The notes beneath the pieces are model-generated. The model ran no database searches. It worked only from the letters and a program-made list of their open reading frames with translations, and had not been told where the DNA came from. The translations under genes were made by a program, and so were the position numbers. Below are positions 1-24,426 of a DNA stretch of 64,000 nt, one piece after another; position 1 is the stretch's first letter; each line of letters opens with the position of its first letter. This stretch comes from a virus (Duplodnaviria; Caudoviricetes), in the IMG/VR virus record IMGVR_UViG_3300038673_000510, positions 1 to 64,000 of that record; one strand, given 5' to 3'.

Positions 1-165
1 GAGGACTTATTTTATTTATTGGAGAAATAATATGAGTATGCGGTCGATCTTCAGAAAACAGCAAAAGATACAAAAGAAGAAGTTAAAAACGAAATAAAAA
101 AAGTAATACGATAAAAATTTATCATATTTACCAGATATTGACGTATAATATATTAAGAGGTAAAT

Positions 166-921
166 ATGATAATTTATAAAATAACAAACTTAATAAATAA
201 AAAAATTTATATAGGTCAAACTATTGGTTTAATGAAAAAACGATGGTATAAACATTGTTCTGAAGCAAAAAATAATAAAAGTATGCCTATAGCACGTGCC
301 ATAGTAAAATATAAAAAAGAAAATTTTATTATTGAAGAAATTGATAGCGCATCAACAAAAGATGAACTTAATGTTAAGGAAATTTATTGGATAGATTACT
401 ATCAATCTTATAAAAAAGAATACGGTTATAATATTTCATTGGGCGGAAAAAATATAAATTTATCACCAGAAGCAGAAGCCAAACGAATCGCTAATATGAT
501 AAAACCAGTGTATCAATATGATTTGTGTGGTAATTTTATAAAAAAATGGGATAAAGTACGAGATGCTGTTTTAAATTATAATGATACCGGCCAAGTTATT
601 GCCAAATGCGCAAGACAACATGGGTATTCAAAAACAGCAAAAGGATTTCAATGGAATTATAATTATGTAGACAAAATGCCAAATGTACAAAATGTTGGTA
701 GAGTTGGAAAAAAGAACAATCAACCAAAAATACTAATGAAAGAAAAAACAAAAGTTATTAAAAAATTTGATTCAATTCAAGAAGCAGCCCAATATATTTT
801 TGAAAATAATAGTATAAGAACAACCAATGTGAAAAGTATTGTAGATGGAATATATAGATACTTATATCAAAAAAAGAAAATATCACATGCTTATGGTTTT
901 CAGTGGGAATATTTATTTTAA
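166..921 (+). CDS. GIY-YIG homing endonuclease with NUMOD1-like repeats
   Basis: IIYKITNLINKKIYIGQT N-terminus, E-x-YWI and GYN motifs, repeated PVYQYDL/KKFDSIQEAA/AYGFQW modules. Confidence 0.9.
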   Translation: MIIYKITNLINKKIYIGQTIGLMKKRWYKHCSEAKNNKSMPIARAIVKYKKENFIIEEIDSASTKDELNVKEIYWIDYYQSYKKEYGYNISLGGKNINLSPEAEAKRIANMIKPVYQYDLCGNFIKKWDKVRDAVLNYNDTGQVIAKCARQHGYSKTAKGFQWNYNYVDKMPNVQNVGRVGKKNNQPKILMKEKTKVIKKFDSIQEAAQYIFENNSIRTTNVKSIVDGIYRYLYQKKKISHAYGFQWEYLF

Positions 922-944
922 CTTATTTGCATTGCTGGTATAAT
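921..944 (+). promoter_or_regulatory. class-II phage promoter ACTTATTTGC-N8-TATAAT upstream of dnaE
   Basis: Same motif and spacing at 8831, 30711, 34152, 39102, 48732. Confidence 0.7.
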
Positions 945-967
945 AAAATAAAAAGGAAAATAATTTT

Positions 968-3176
968 ATGACAACTCAAATTAAAGATTTTAATGTAAGA
1001 AAAAGCTTTACTGTAGCAAAGATTCAGATAATTAAATCTGAATCATCTTATCCAGATATAGACTAATTGCGCCCATTCATTTTTATTTGAATGGGCGCAA
1101 GGAATATAAGACACAGATTTAGGCGCTCATCCAATTACCGGTAAAAGTAAAGACACTGTTATTGAGTATCTTATTGAAAAATATGGACAGGAATATGTTG
1201 CTAATGTCGGCACACGAATGATTTATAGTGCAAAAAGTGCTATAAGAGATTTGGCGGCAGTTTATGAAATACCACCATCAGAAAGTTTCAAAATTACTAA
1301 AGAGTATAATGATGAACTTGATGTGGCAGCAAATATTCGTCGTAATAAAAACATCGCCGAATATTTTGCAAAATATCCAATGTTAAAAGATAAGGTCGAC
1401 CAATTAATTGGTACAATTTCTTCTCTTGGTGTTCATGCTGGTGGTGTTATTCTTTCTGATAAAGCACGTAAACTTTCTTTATTTGATTATTGTGCTCTGC
1501 AAAGAACAAAAGACGAGGGACGTATTGCCAGTTTGTGGACAAAAGAAGAAGTTGCTCAATTGGGATTTATTAAATATGACTTACTTGGACTTAATTCTGC
1601 GTCGATGGTTCATTATGCGCGTCAACTTCTTGATCTCAACCCATATGAAGATGCTCCAGAGGATGAAGAAGTTTTCCGCGATATAGTACTTTGTCTTAAA
1701 CATAAAAATATATTCCAGTTTGAAAGTCAATTAGGACGGCAAGCATTTGAGGATTTTCTTCCAATGAGTATTGCAGAACTTGGAAATGCTACCGCCGTTA
1801 TACGTCTTGTGGGTGCAGAAGCTGGTCGTGAAGTTTATAATGACTATAAAAAAGCAGTAGATCAGATTCAGCAAGGTGACACAGAGTATTGGAAAGAAAG
1901 ACTGTATCAAGAATGTGTTAATGAAGATAACGCCAGAATTTCAATTGAAGTTATGAAAGATAGTTATGGTGTGCTTATTTTTCAGGAACAGCTTGCTAAC
2001 CTTGTTAAAGAATTTAGTAGAGGGCAGAAAACGTTTACAGATGGTAATCAGTGCAGAAAAGCTCTTGATAAACATAAAAAGAAATATGGAACAATAGATG
2101 ACTGTCAAGGTGATAAAACAGCAATTGAACTTTGGCATAAAACATTTATGGAGATTCTTGAAACATATTTTCTTCCATTTATTGGAGAAGATGGTTGGGA
2201 TAGCCCAGATGAAGCAACACAAGATTTTCTTAATTGTAAATTAACAGCAGATAAAAGATTGCCATTACCCGAACGTGGACCATTAAAATGGGTTCTTTCG
2301 TCTGCTGCATACTTGTTTAACAAGTTACATGCAATTGCATATTCAGTTAATACGTATAATATGATGTGGCTAAAACATTATTATCCAAAAGAATTTTGGG
2401 TATCTTCGTTAACATGCGTTCAAGATAACTTAGATTCCGTTAGAAATATGATTGCTGCAATTGCTGTTGAAAATCCCGAAATAAAAATTCTTGCACCTAA
2501 TGTAAATAAATCAGAGGCAAATTTTACTATTGAAGATGATAATATAAGATATGGTATGTCAGCTATTAATGGTATGTCAATGGCTGCAGAAATTATTTTG
2601 GAAGAAAGAAAAAATAATGGACGATATCTGTCAATAGAAGATTTTATCAAAAGAACAGCCAAAACAAAAGTAAACAAAAGAGCCTTAACTGCATTATTGT
2701 TTATAAATGCTTTTAGTGATTTCGGAGATATACAAAAAGCATGGAAAGGTCTTCAGAAAGCTGGAAGAGAACTTGATTTTCCTGAAATGGATCAGGCTGC
2801 ATTAGCAAGTAAAGAAGCAAGCTTTATTGGTGGTAATTTAACATTCACACATCCAATTCTTTCTAAAGCTGGATATTATACTCCGTTTTCAGAGATGGCA
2901 GATGGTGTTTCTGATACTTGTGCATTTAGAGTTCTTAAAATAATTAAGAAAACAACAAAGAAAAACAAACCATATCAATTGCTTAGAGTTACTTGTTTAA
3001 ATTGTGGTCAAACAGTTAATTTGTTTGATTGGCAAAATAGAACGGACATAGAAAATCAGGAATACCTTATTGCAAGGGTAACTAAGAATGGAAATTTTAC
3101 TACTCTTAATGGGCCATCAACGGCTGCAGGAAAAAATTTTAGCACCAGTAGCGCTAAAAAAATATTAAGGATGTAA
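968..3176 (+). CDS. dnaE: DNA polymerase III alpha-type catalytic subunit (no PHP domain), interrupted by a 49-nt gap (1064-1112); predicted 719 aa when joined
   Basis: 968-1063 encodes MTTQ...SYPDID then TAA; 1113 onward continues TDLGAHP...IEKYG, GVHAGGV, KYDLLGL, IFQFES, YLFNKLHAIAYS, WLKHYYP, PNVNKS. Confidence 0.9.
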
Positions 3177-3177
3177 T

Positions 3178-3441
3178 ATGAAAAAAGAAAAACGTATTAA
3201 ACTAAAAAATAAAAGTAAATATGATTTTGTTGATATTTCAACAGAAGAATATAGAGAATATACTTTTGTAAAATATTTTATTTTTAAAGTAAAAGTAAGA
3301 CTCAAAAATCCATTAGATTTAGCGGTTAGTAGTAGTGGTCACAGAGTTTTAACTGGAGATGGAATTAGTCATTATATTCCTAATGGATGGATTCATCTTG
3401 AGTGGAAATCAAAACCACATGCACCACATTTTGTAAAATAG
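3178..3441 (+). CDS. hypothetical protein
   Basis: ORF directly after dnaE stop. Confidence 0.7.
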   Translation: MKKEKRIKLKNKSKYDFVDISTEEYREYTFVKYFIFKVKVRLKNPLDLAVSSSGHRVLTGDGISHYIPNGWIHLEWKSKPHAPHFVK

Positions 3442-3449
3442 GAGAGTAT

Positions 3450-3818
3450 ATGTTTGGATTTGGAACAAAAGCGAGAATAAGGTCATTAGAACAAAAAGTC
3501 CTTTCACTGCAAACGGCCAAAAAAGAAGCGGTTATAACAACGTTGACAGAAGAACAACAAACAGAACTTTTGAATTATTGTTCAAAAGAGATACAAGACG
3601 CGGTATATAAGGTTCTATTTGAAAAAACAATTCCAGATACTCATGATGGAACAATGCAAATAGTTGAAAGAACTATTGCTGGAATGTTTGACAAAGTTTT
3701 TAAAGAGATAGAAAATAAAATTCATAAAAAAATTATTGCTGATTTTGATGAATTCTATCATTCAGAAGAATTTATTGATAATATAGTAGAAAGAATTTTA
3801 AAAAAACAATTACGATAA
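3450..3818 (+). CDS. hypothetical protein
   Basis: GGAGAG RBS before ATG (MFGFGTK). Confidence 0.65.
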   Translation: MFGFGTKARIRSLEQKVLSLQTAKKEAVITTLTEEQQTELLNYCSKEIQDAVYKVLFEKTIPDTHDGTMQIVERTIAGMFDKVFKEIENKIHKKIIADFDEFYHSEEFIDNIVERILKKQLR

Positions 3819-9440: not shown

Positions 9441-9986
9441 ATGATATGTGAAAATTGTGGAATAGAACATAATGGTTCTTATGGTAGTGGAAGATTTTGT
9501 TCACAAAAGTGTGCGAGGGGATTTAGTACTAAATTTAATAGAAAAGAAACAAGTAAAAAGGTTTCATTAAAATTAAGTGGTGGTAAACAAAAAAATAAAT
9601 GCTTATATTGTGATACTATAGTAAAGAAAAATAGACATAAATTTTGTGGAAGAGAATGTGCTTTTAAATATAAAAAAGAGCAATATATAAGAAATTTAGA
9701 ACACAAGCAAGTATTTTCTTCACAAGGAAACGCAAGAACATATTTACTTTATAAAAATGGTAATAAGTGTGAAATTTGTGGAACAGAAGTATGGAATGGA
9801 AAGCCAGTTCCACTTGTAATGGATCATATTGATGGTAACTCTGATAATCATTCTTTTAATAATTGCCGATTAATTTGTAGAAATTGTGACGGACAATTAG
9901 ATACTTATTCTGGTAGAAATATTGGAAAAGGTAGAAAAACAAAAAGAATGATTAAGTTTAAAAAATATAATGGAGAATTAGTTTAA
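9441..9986 (+). CDS. HNH homing endonuclease with Zn-finger repeats
   Basis: CENC..GSGRFCS..C; CEICG, MDHIDGNSDN, CRNCD. Confidence 0.9.
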   Translation: MICENCGIEHNGSYGSGRFCSQKCARGFSTKFNRKETSKKVSLKLSGGKQKNKCLYCDTIVKKNRHKFCGRECAFKYKKEQYIRNLEHKQVFSSQGNARTYLLYKNGNKCEICGTEVWNGKPVPLVMDHIDGNSDNHSFNNCRLICRNCDGQLDTYSGRNIGKGRKTKRMIKFKKYNGELV

Positions 9987-10042
9987 TAGTAAAACGATAG
10001 CCTGTCACGTTATTGTCAGGGGAGCATAACCCCTATTCTCCG
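9972..10042 (+). tRNA. tRNA-Asp(GTC), atypical T-loop AGCATAA
   Basis: GGAGAAT/ATTCTCC; ATAGC-CTGTCAC-GTTAT. Confidence 0.85.
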
Positions 10043-12945: not shown

Positions 12946-13506
12946 ATGAAATGTGAATATTGTAATAAAGAGCACGATGGTGCTTATGCAAGTGGAAGAT
13001 TTTGTTCGAAAGAATGTGCAAGAGGATTTTCTTCACGTGAAAAACGAAAAGAAATAAATATTAAGGTTAGTAAAACTTTAACAAAAAATAAAAAATGGTC
13101 ATTAAAACAACTTGAACCTAAGTCATGTTTAAATTGTGGGGCAACAATTAAAAATGCTCGTATTTATTGTAGTAATCAATGTCAACAAGATTATAGAAAA
13201 AAACAATATACTTTATCGGTTGAAAAAAATGGAAAATTTCCAAATCTTACTTCTGACTCAGGTGCTCGTGTAAGATTAGTAAAAAGATATTTAATAGAAA
13301 AAAATGGTCATAAATGTTCTATATGCGGTGGAACAAAATGGTTTAATAACTTAATGCCATTATGGGTCGATCATATTGATGGTCAAGGCGATAATTGGGA
13401 AATAAGTAATATAAGATTAGTATGTCCTAATTGTGACTTTTTTTCTTCTACTTATTGTGGTAGAAATAAAGGTAAAGGTCGTCGTAATCCATATAAGCGT
13501 CTTTAG
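12946..13506 (+). CDS. HNH homing endonuclease with Zn-finger repeats
   Basis: MKCEYC..SGRFCSKEC, CSICG, VDHIDGQGDN, CPNCD; GAGG RBS. Confidence 0.9.
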   Translation: MKCEYCNKEHDGAYASGRFCSKECARGFSSREKRKEINIKVSKTLTKNKKWSLKQLEPKSCLNCGATIKNARIYCSNQCQQDYRKKQYTLSVEKNGKFPNLTSDSGARVRLVKRYLIEKNGHKCSICGGTKWFNNLMPLWVDHIDGQGDNWEISNIRLVCPNCDFFSSTYCGRNKGKGRRNPYKRL

Positions 13507-13568
13507 CTCAGAAGCAGAGCACATCCCTCATAAGGATTAGGTGATAGGGGCAGTACCTATAAGACGCA
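13497..13568 (+). tRNA. tRNA-Met/Ile2(CAT), T-loop GGCAGTA
   Basis: GCGTCTT/AAGACGC; ATCC-CTCATAA-GGAT. Confidence 0.85.
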
Positions 13569-14621: not shown

Positions 14622-14944
14622 GGGTACGAAAGGTTTCGATTGTATTAGTGATTTATAATAAGCATGCAGTGTAGAGTAGACACTATAAAGAACTCAAATA
14701 ATTTAAATGCAAACGATTTTACACCTGCAAGGATGGCTGCTTAAGCCACTTGCTCAGAGTCTAAGAGTACTTTGTTAAATAAACTCTTTTGTTGTAAATA
14801 GTCTGTCATTCCTATTCAAAGAATGTCTGGTGGAGACAAACAAAGTTCGAAAAAAGATGTAAGAGTGGTTTACTATAAAACCTAAGCATGTAGAAAGTTA
14901 TAAGTTAGTAATATAAGACGCGGGTTCGAATCCCGCCGTATCCA
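14622..14944 (+). ncRNA. ssrA: tmRNA; tag (A)NDFTPARMAA at 14709-14744
   Basis: GGGTACG/CGTATCC acceptor with G3:U70, GGTTTCGA, GCATG helix, PK1, resume GCA after ATTTAAAT, GACGCGGGTTCGAATCCCGC T arm. Confidence 0.95.
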
Positions 14945-23783: not shown

Positions 23784-24356
23784 ATGAAATGTGAAAATTG
23801 CAATATAAAACATAATGGTACTTATGGCAGTGGCAGGTTTTGTTCTGAAAAATGTGCGCATAGTTATCCATGGAAAATAAAAAGAAAAGAAATGTGTAAA
23901 AATATTTCTTTAGCAATGGGTGGAACAGGTGATCCCGGACAGGGTATAACAAAAATATGTAAACACTGTAATACAACATTTACATCAAAACAATGTAAAC
24001 AATCATTTTGTTCAACTTTATGTTCTAATTTGTATAAAACAAAAGAAACACAAAAAAAATTAGATTATATACAAAATTTTGCTGGTTATGGAATTAATAC
24101 AATAAAAAAATATTTAATTAGTAGAAAAAAACATAAGTGTGAAATTTGTGGAACAGAAGTATGGAATGGAAAACCAGTTCCACTTGTAATGGATCATATT
24201 GATGGCAATTCTGATAATTGGGATGTTACTAATTTACGTTTGGTCTGTAGAAATTGTGATGGTCAATTAGATACTTTTTGTGGTAAAAATAAAGGTTATG
24301 GAGCATCAAGAAGTAAACGTAAAATGAAAAAATATTATGATGGACAAACATTTTAG
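23784..24356 (+). CDS. HNH homing endonuclease with Zn-finger repeats
   Basis: Paralog of 9441; MDHIDGNSDN, CRNCD. Confidence 0.9.
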   Translation: MKCENCNIKHNGTYGSGRFCSEKCAHSYPWKIKRKEMCKNISLAMGGTGDPGQGITKICKHCNTTFTSKQCKQSFCSTLCSNLYKTKETQKKLDYIQNFAGYGINTIKKYLISRKKHKCEICGTEVWNGKPVPLVMDHIDGNSDNWDVTNLRLVCRNCDGQLDTFCGKNKGYGASRSKRKMKKYYDGQTF

Positions 24357-24426
24357 GATAATTAGTTTAATGGTAAAACGATAAATTCTAAATTTATTTT
24401 TTGGGGTTCAATTCCCCAATTATCCA
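24356..24426 (+). tRNA. amber suppressor tRNA (CTA anticodon)
   Basis: GGATAAT/ATTATCC; ATAAA-TTCTAAA-TTTAT; TGGGG-TTCAATT-CCCCA; A73. Confidence 0.85.

Follow-up and report, generated by a model that had tools for sequence, protein, structure and literature searches.

A putative translational bypass in the split DnaE gene of a Caudoviricetes virus, associated with a homing endonuclease

The interrupted dnaE locus

The first 64,000 nt of the IMG/VR viral record IMGVR_UViG_3300038673_000510 (Duplodnaviria; Caudoviricetes), which are the window (W) analysed here, begin with a homing endonuclease gene and, directly downstream of it, a gene for the C-terminal part of the DNA polymerase DnaE whose reading frame is broken by 49 nt at the catalytic motif. 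The record itself is linear, 116,958 nt long, ~63% complete and 30% G+C, and the window starts at its first base. Compared loci and contigs carry L numbers, and compared proteins, or their contigs, P numbers. The codon before the gap is called the take-off codon and its counterpart after the gap the landing codon, since the arrangement is probably to be read as a translational hop from one to the other, as in phage T4 gene 60. The features of the locus are as follows.

122–148, + strand: what is left, in decayed form, of the C-part's original 5′ end, SYLPDIDV and then a stop; it marks the 5′ joint of the proposed cassette, after GAC 140–142
166–921, + strand: intact homing endonuclease gene, 251 aa, with GIY-YIG and NUMOD1 domains (Pfam)
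936–944 and 953–957, + strand: candidate extended −10-like sequence TGGTATAAT and AAGGA ribosome binding site (RBS), both read directly from the sequence, to serve the leader
968–1063, + strand: leader, or N-terminal extension, of 32 codons, with KDFNVRKSF at 983–1009, a re-encoded segment ending SYPDID, and the take-off codon GAC at 1061–1063
1064–1066, + strand: TAA stop codon that lies directly 3′ to the take-off codon
1067–1100, + strand: hairpin of 13 bp with an 8-nt loop; the same arms are present in L003/L104 and L285–L289
1101–1109, + strand: GGA, a minimal Shine Dalgarno (SD) sequence, at 1101–1103, and a 6-nt A/U spacer with TAA 1107–1109, which closes the landing frame upstream
1110–1112, + strand: landing codon GAC; the gap is 1064–1112, 49 nt
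1113–3176, + strand: resumed DnaE C-part, 687 codons, TDLGAHPITGK..., with palm, fingers and HhH

The leader opens with ATG 968 and ends ...SESSYPDID. The two arms of the hairpin that follows its stop codon (1067–1079 and 1088–1100) are perfectly complementary. The hairpin begins directly 3′ of the stop, 3 nt after the take-off codon; this codon itself is unpaired. The predicted fold of 1040–1130 has a free energy of −27 kcal/mol (z = −4.3 against shuffled sequences), and that of the stretch from take-off to landing, 1061–1112, −23.4 kcal/mol. AAGGA is present at 1099–1103; it had been placed after the hairpin, but its first two bases are also the final two of the 3′ arm. It is followed by ATATAA, which holds the TAA in the landing frame, and then by the landing GAC, which is one base out of the leader frame (49 is 1 modulo 3). 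From there the frame reads ACA GAT TTA and is open through 3176, with ATG, GTG and TTG absent before 1218. In Pfam the downstream frame matches DNA_pol3_alpha at profile positions 110–260, the finger domain and HHH_6.

The motif PDxDxD carries two of the three catalytic aspartates of C-family polymerases; we take its second and third Asp to be D401 and D403 of E. coli. As an initial annotation of this DNA had pointed out, a start at 1218 would be past both aspartates of the motif, and the leader, stop, hairpin, second GAC and open frame are all present where it had placed them. Of the upstream signals that it named, the RBS is there; a consensus scan calls no promoter before 968, which leaves just the −10-like sequence. 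Skipping 1064–1112 yields SYPDIDTDLG, as in uninterrupted relatives and in gap-free alleles from the 90% protein cluster of L003. When both strands of the 117-kb record were scanned for a short open reading frame (ORF) and stop followed, 15–80 nt on, by a codon for the same tRNA that opens a start-less frame of at least 200 codons, this was the single site found. The configuration is not due to chance. An intrinsic terminator was considered for the hairpin and rejected: 1067–1100 is followed by GGAATATAAG, with no T tail, and is not called by a terminator scan.

The insert is real and no assembly artefact, because L290, an independent contig of 194 kb that comes from a different JGI sample and was met in two samples, has it in identical form, together with the nuclease gene and the 32-codon ORF; L290 and the window differ at 5 of 8000 aligned positions. 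The L003-type gap occurs in two assemblies, the L285-type in five contigs from at least three studies, and at least seven additional contigs, taken from other studies, have homologous inserts. Of the five positions at which L290 and the window differ over 8 kb, four fall in a 13-nt stretch of dnaE, 1553–1565 (T>A, T>A, G>A and A>T), and this cluster looks like a small exchange patch, not scattered mutation.

Relatives with and without a gap

The gene belongs to a DnaE family of phages that is encoded as two genes, an N-part and a C-part. The N-part of L002 has PHP and DNA_pol3_alpha positions 3–101 and ends ...FERFLNLER plus a tail of ~50 aa, and its C-part has ~17 residues and then PPDIDGDFF, uninterrupted. 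About 55 of the 75 family members found by protein search start M...(I/V)x(I/V)xKPExSYPDIDxDxG with no break. Three unsplit members (P0036, P0048 and P0053), which nest inside the family tree, read FERFLNPDRLKYPDIDVD, like ordinary DnaE, and the five family loci found in viral contigs by profile-based locus searches and the one found in genome contigs are all uninterrupted. The ancestral reading of the C-part is continuous, and therefore the 49 nt of the window are an insertion, placed between residues two and three of ID|TD.

The split between the two genes (seen in L002, L123, L125 and L203) lies between FERFLNxER and PDID, with tails of ~50 aa on the N-part and ~17–25 aa on the C-part. Gene order varies. 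The N-part is upstream of the C-part in L002, L123 and L125, downstream of it in L203, and not adjacent to it in the window, L003, L120, L283, L284 and L285. There is no PHP domain match in the 117-kb record, and the N-part of the window lies off it. Two ideas were tried here and rejected. One was an N-terminal DnaE gene just upstream of the nuclease: L290 has no PHP or DnaE gene within ~4.9–6 kb upstream. The other was a split intein: neither the L002 N-part nor the C-part and leader of the window has an intein or Hint match in Pfam, and there is no His-Asn or nucleophile signature.

Gene calls begin after the motif in 12 protein clusters of the family, and wherever DNA was obtained an insert is at the same place. 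Seven gap types are distinguished, that of the window included. They are 49, 51, 51, 32, 31, 43 and 66 nt long and all are at PD^ID or PDID^TD. The six besides the window's are listed here, with identity to the window for all but the second.

L003/L104: 74% identity; take-off PD GAT, next codon TAT; hairpin arms as in the window; gap 51 nt; landing GAT
L285–L289: same 90% cluster as L003; take-off PDID GAC, next codon TAT; same 48-nt core as L003; gap 51 nt; landing GAC
L120: 51% identity; take-off GAT, next codon TAG; 7-bp stem with UUCG loop; gap 32 nt; landing GAT
L121: 53% identity; take-off GAT, next codon TAG; GAAA loop; gap 31 nt; landing GAT
L283: 50% identity; take-off GAT, next codon TAG; UUUG loop; gap 43 nt; landing GAC
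L284: 48% identity; take-off GAC, next codon TAA; 17-bp stem that includes take-off and stop codons; gap 66 nt; landing GAT

In all seven types the gap has an Asp codon at either end, and a single tRNA(GUC) normally decodes such codons; in two types the pair is non-identical (GAT/GAC and GAC/GAT). A stop codon comes right after take-off in five of the seven (among the six other than the window, TAG three times and TAA once). Every type has, like T4 gene 60, a G-rich triplet (GGA, GAGAG, GG or GAGG in the family) 5–8 nt before landing, with a spacer that is 88–100% A/U, and none has a GAY triplet between hairpin and landing codon. The tetraloops UUCG, UUUG or GNRA are found in three of the six other types, and in L120 and L284 the take-off and stop codons are paired within the stem. 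L003 and L285, which at a dS of 0.057 are nearly one phage, have the same 48-nt core 6 nt, or two codons, apart, and the landing codon tracks the take-off codon: GAT/GAT in L003, GAC/GAC in L285. This co-change is the strongest single observation.

Frameshifting was rejected as an explanation: modulo 3 the gap lengths cover each of the three classes, and those gaps that are in frame hold stops. The stop after take-off is TAA in the window and TAG in three relatives, and the phage encodes a tRNA with anticodon CUA. Read-through of the stop by this tRNA was also rejected: the stop in the window is TAA, and the frames before and after the gap differ.

Gap-bearing or truncated genes are scattered over a tree of 74 C-part proteins: they turn up at no fewer than seven distinct positions, and each has uninterrupted sisters next to it. 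The contigs of P0004, P0009, P0031 and P0038, for which gene maps were used, each have a mini-ORF and then a shortened gene, and a search of a representative library with P0131 gave one more truncated member, P0149. By pattern search the hairpin arms of the window are absent from its remainder and from viral contigs. Among metagenome contigs, 114 of 115 stretches found with the arms are unrelated GC-rich terminators, and L104 is the sole dnaE case.

Alleles without the gap circulate within the 90% cluster of L003. P0130 and P0131 are 717 aa long (28 + 689) and read ...SWPDIDTDLGTH...; their protein is exactly the joined product that a hop is predicted to give. Between the window and L003 or L285, dN/dS is 0.07–0.09 with synonymous sites saturated (pS 0.71–0.73), and the downstream DnaE frame is, by this measure, under purifying selection. 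Over the same distance identity is 82% in the non-coding gap, where neither arm has changed, and 70–79% in the coding flanks. An unconstrained spacer should have decayed by then, to judge from the synonymous sites.

The leaders of gap-bearing genes also have a feature of their own. The motif KDFNxRK[ST]F is present ~18–23 residues before take-off in five of six distinct gap-bearing leaders; that of L120 differs at the motif position, with KD...NNSF. KDFNxRK is confined to gap-bearing genes and, within the L003 cluster, to gap-free alleles as well; ~55 other members lack it. Its resemblance to NVRRSI of T4 is weak, and the two are 1–3 residues off register.

A mobile cassette, the proposed hop and its rivals

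The sequence PD[IV]D occurs only twice in the six frames of the 117-kb record, in the remnant (122–142) and in the leader (1052), and deletion of 143–1112 on paper rejoins ...SYLPDID to TDLG.... Because a homing endonuclease gene is adjacent and the PDID segment is duplicated, these features point to 143–1112 as a mobile cassette of ~970 nt near the 5′ end of the split DnaE C-part gene. They do so in place of the regulatory throttle on replication that had been suggested at first, for which no support was found. The closest relative found of the nuclease (40.6% identity, also GIY-YIG with NUMOD1) is directly upstream of the leader in gap-bearing L284; relatives in cultured phages are all below 32% identity and are uninformative. 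On the P0038 contig a GIY-YIG gene is followed by an ORF of 32 aa and then by a truncated gene.

In L121 the start of the C-part is doubled (505–579 and 736–846): the older start, MKIKSVEVKNPDVSFPDID, is ended by FCK and a stop, and a new leader, the gap and the gene come ~215 nt further on. Deletion has apparently removed its nuclease gene, of which traces may persist between the two starts. Since L121 keeps the older C-part start, the split of DnaE into N- and C-part is, on this comparison, older than the cassette. No recognisable nuclease gene is near dnaE in L003, L120, L121 or L283. In L124, whose sister is P0038, two GIY-YIG-like fragments (67–357 and 2867–3169) are upstream of an uninterrupted C-part; a history in which the nuclease decayed first and the gap was then lost would fit.

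The cassette would comprise the nuclease gene (166–921), a new start region with the leader (968–1063) that re-encodes ...SYPDID, and the gap (1064–1112). A ribosome translating the leader would pause with peptidyl-tRNA-Asp on GAC 1061–1063 beside the TAA. The tRNA would then un-pair, the ribosome would pass the 13-bp hairpin, and the tRNA would re-pair at GAC 1110–1112, aided by pairing of rRNA with the GGA six bases upstream. Decoding would resume at ACA GAT TTA to give a 719-aa subunit with an intact PDIDTD catalytic motif, and the predicted junction peptide of this product is ...SSYPDIDTDLGAHPITGK. The conserved sequence that is the most likely recognition site of the nuclease would be parted in two by the gap, and a genome with the gap would thereby escape cleavage by the nuclease that it encodes, a role suggested by what is reported for T4 MobA. 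We infer the hop as such, how efficient it is and a role for the leader peptide.

A hop from GAC 1061–1063 to GAC 1110–1112 that rebuilds PDIDTDL, as originally proposed, is likely, and is supported by the continuous relatives, the gap-free alleles and the seven gap types with signals of the gene 60 kind. Several points weigh on the other side. The take-off codon of the window is outside the stem, unlike in T4, L120 and L284, and the 13-bp helix is too long for the model of an A-site stem-loop developed for T4, so the route over the gap may differ. In the gaps of the closest relatives (L003 and L285 types) take-off is followed by the sense codon TAT in place of a stop, and the pause signal there is uncertain. 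The alignment of related dnaE genes that had been called for finds the insert and the same-tRNA codons conserved, but the stems of the window and its relatives are identical, with no compensatory changes; the structure is conserved, not covarying. Use of the anti-SD sequence is assumed from the RBSs of the phage itself. Recent homing could have put the gap into a gene that had been shaped by selection beforehand, and the matched flanking triplets could stem from a 3-bp target duplication made by an inserted element.

This last point leads to a different origin, in which the hairpin is a small independent mobile element with a 3-bp target duplication, unrelated to the nuclease, and the matched codons are a by-product. 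The 48-nt core common to L003 and L285, at two sites 6 nt apart with a repeated triplet flanking each, is what such an element would leave, and the four loci with no recognisable nuclease gene nearby agree with it. However, a free transposer should have copies, and the arms are absent elsewhere in the window and in viral contigs and are met in metagenomes only at the same dnaE site. Nor does target duplication suit the two gap types with non-identical synonymous pairs, or a nuclease gene flanked by duplicated PDID segments. Such an origin is improbable, and as the essential gene would still need a hop or splicing, it rivals the cassette as an account of origin, not the hop as an account of decoding.

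Decoding would be explained otherwise if the mRNA lost the 49 nt, either as a micro-intron or through being cut and religated, for instance by the phage Rnl1 and PNK or by host enzymes. The initial annotation names these RNA repair enzymes as products of the phage, and a compact hairpin could offer two cut sites. The hairpins of the relatives, though, are unrelated, with 4 to 17 bp, and fit no single ribozyme or endonuclease site. A search of both strands of 1–3500 with Rfam gave no match at E <= 1 and no intron core, and a self-splicing intron or known RNA family was rejected on this ground and because 49 nt is far below the size of an intron core. Splicing needs no stop at the 5′ joint, no same-tRNA pairs, no mini-SD at a fixed distance and no cassette-specific leader. 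Excision by Rnl1 and PNK, as first put forward, leaves all of these unexplained and found no support. The gap of T4 gene 60 is retained in its mRNA. Removal at the RNA level is improbable.

Translational hopping would also be dispensable if the gap were not crossed at all, either because the allele is defective and is carried along through co-infection and homing, or because the polymerase is made in pieces from the 32-aa peptide and a protein started downstream. A nuclease cassette can spread selfishly and gap-free alleles circulate in the same populations, and some relatives have ATA or ATT next after landing, 8–11 nt past the G-rich triplet, where weak initiation is possible. The codon after landing is ACA in the window, however, and GTA in L283, and the window has no start codon before 1218, beyond the two aspartates. 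Low dN/dS over saturated synonymous divergence, together with the 82% conservation of the gap, argues for long-lived, functional gap-bearing genes. The same signals are kept by seven gap types. The decay of this gene beside an intact second polymerase, which had been named as an outcome that would tell against a hop, is not what is found: the 117-kb record has no second copy of the DnaE palm domain. Lack of crossing is improbable.

An artefact of assembly or sequencing deserves practically no credence, for although the near-identical contig L004 starts at position 1184 of the window, ~70 nt past the gap, so that assemblies do break nearby, the identical insert in L290 and the homologous inserts in at least seven other contigs are independent of it. 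L004, from another sample, is the third near-identical contig and corresponds to the window from 1184 onward; a break near the cassette is expected if alleles with and without it coexist.

Known bypassing systems and companion tRNAs

T4 gene 60 is the one studied long-range bypass of bacteria and phages, and its homologues are all in the same topoisomerase gene; in the survey of Manning & Atkins (bioRxiv 10.1101/2022.08.31.505936) the elements are exclusively in Topo2L and the cassette is called unique. The T4 MobA element as described there has a nuclease gene, an N-terminal extension with a re-encoded region and a bypass cassette, with later loss of nuclease or gap, and the T4 gap is reported to protect its carrier from its own nuclease (10.1101/2022.08.31.505936, citing Bonocora et al.). 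UUCG, UUUG and GNRA loops are listed for the gene 60 homologues (10.1101/2022.08.31.505936).

Gene 60 was compared directly from record NC_000866. Both systems have a gap of tens of nucleotides in a DxD-type metal-binding motif of an essential replication enzyme, and in both one tRNA reads the take-off and landing codons, Asp take-off being known in the T4-type elements too. Both further have a stop that follows take-off, a stem-loop at the gap's 5′ end and, within A/U-rich sequence, a mini-SD rich in G that precedes landing by 5–7 nt (GAG plus 6 nt in T4 gene 60, GGA plus ATATAA in the window). The N-terminal extension that comes with the cassette re-encodes the displaced segment in both, a homing endonuclease gene is directly upstream (GIY-YIG replaces MobA in some metagenomic cases of the T4 type), and lineages without nuclease or without gap exist. 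The L120 gap opens with the same 14 nt as that of T4 gene 60, TAGCCTTCGGGCTA, which is a common stable hairpin tip, and the UUUG loop of L283 and the GAAA loop of L121 are variants known from gene 60 homologues.

There are differences. The host gene is DnaE here and the topoisomerase large subunit there. The take-off codon of the window is outside a much longer stem, of 13 bp, whereas that of T4 is in the 5′ arm, and gaps in the DnaE family reach 66 nt. The N/C split of DnaE, in which the N-part is not adjacent in the window, appears to predate the cassette. Gap and leader of the window are without demonstrable homology to those of T4, and its nuclease is GIY-YIG where that of T4 is HNH.

The byps of Magnusiomyces capitatus mitochondria, as Lang et al. 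are said to have described in 2014, are GC-rich hairpin inserts of tens of nucleotides that are skipped between matched codons in AT-rich coding sequence. The DnaE gaps resemble them in being hairpin inserts of similar size skipped, it is proposed, between matched codons. A genome reportedly holds many byps, spread over many genes, and the codon that they use is an unassigned one, not a stop; the gap in the window is at a single site and is linked to a nuclease cassette.

Another kind of fractured gene, known for DnaE and other enzymes, is divided by split inteins, and a free-standing homing endonuclease stands between its halves (Dassa et al. 2009, PMC2677866). An untranslated gap within one gene is mentioned there only to be dismissed, given the long spacers of those cases (PMC2677866). 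Common to both are DnaE of phages or environmental DNA in separate genes and a homing endonuclease gene at the break. The present gene differs in having no intein, the interruption being a short untranslated gap inside one gene. Full-text literature searches found no report of bypassing in dnaE.

If the hop is true, a second essential gene with gaps, of 31–66 nt, would make bypassing a general route by which homing endonuclease elements enter active-site codons without killing the gene. The family would then be a comparative series of seven variants, with several hairpin classes, Asp take-off, versions with and without a stop, and matched gap-free alleles, in which stem length, take-off inside or outside the stem, the leader peptide and SD spacing can be compared. 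For annotation it would mean that gene callers shorten these polymerases to catalytically dead proteins of 590–690 aa.

A more speculative and rather doubtful possibility is that the DnaE and T4-type topoisomerase cassettes go back to a single transferable bypass unit, made up of leader, stop, tetraloop hairpin, mini-SD and matched codon and moved by homing endonucleases between unrelated essential genes onto the GAY-NNN-GAY codons of DxD metal sites, with the phage tRNA-Asp(GUC) of 9972–10042 as the tRNA that could make the hop. This tRNA (9972–10042, + strand) has the anticodon loop CUGUCAC, with anticodon GUC, and a non-canonical T-loop, AGCAUAA, with no TTC. It scores 54.9 bits in Rfam and is missed by ARAGORN. 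It matches the take-off and landing codons, and a link to the hop is conceivable.

Further RNA genes lie elsewhere in the window. The tRNA with anticodon CUA, of the amber suppressor type, is at 24356–24426 (+ strand), and a phage transfer-messenger RNA (tmRNA) with the tag ANDFTPARMAA is at 14622–14944 (+ strand). A further tRNA at 13497–13568 (+ strand) scores 46 bits in Rfam, is uncalled by ARAGORN and has a T-loop without TTC; it is one of several odd tRNAs in the cluster.

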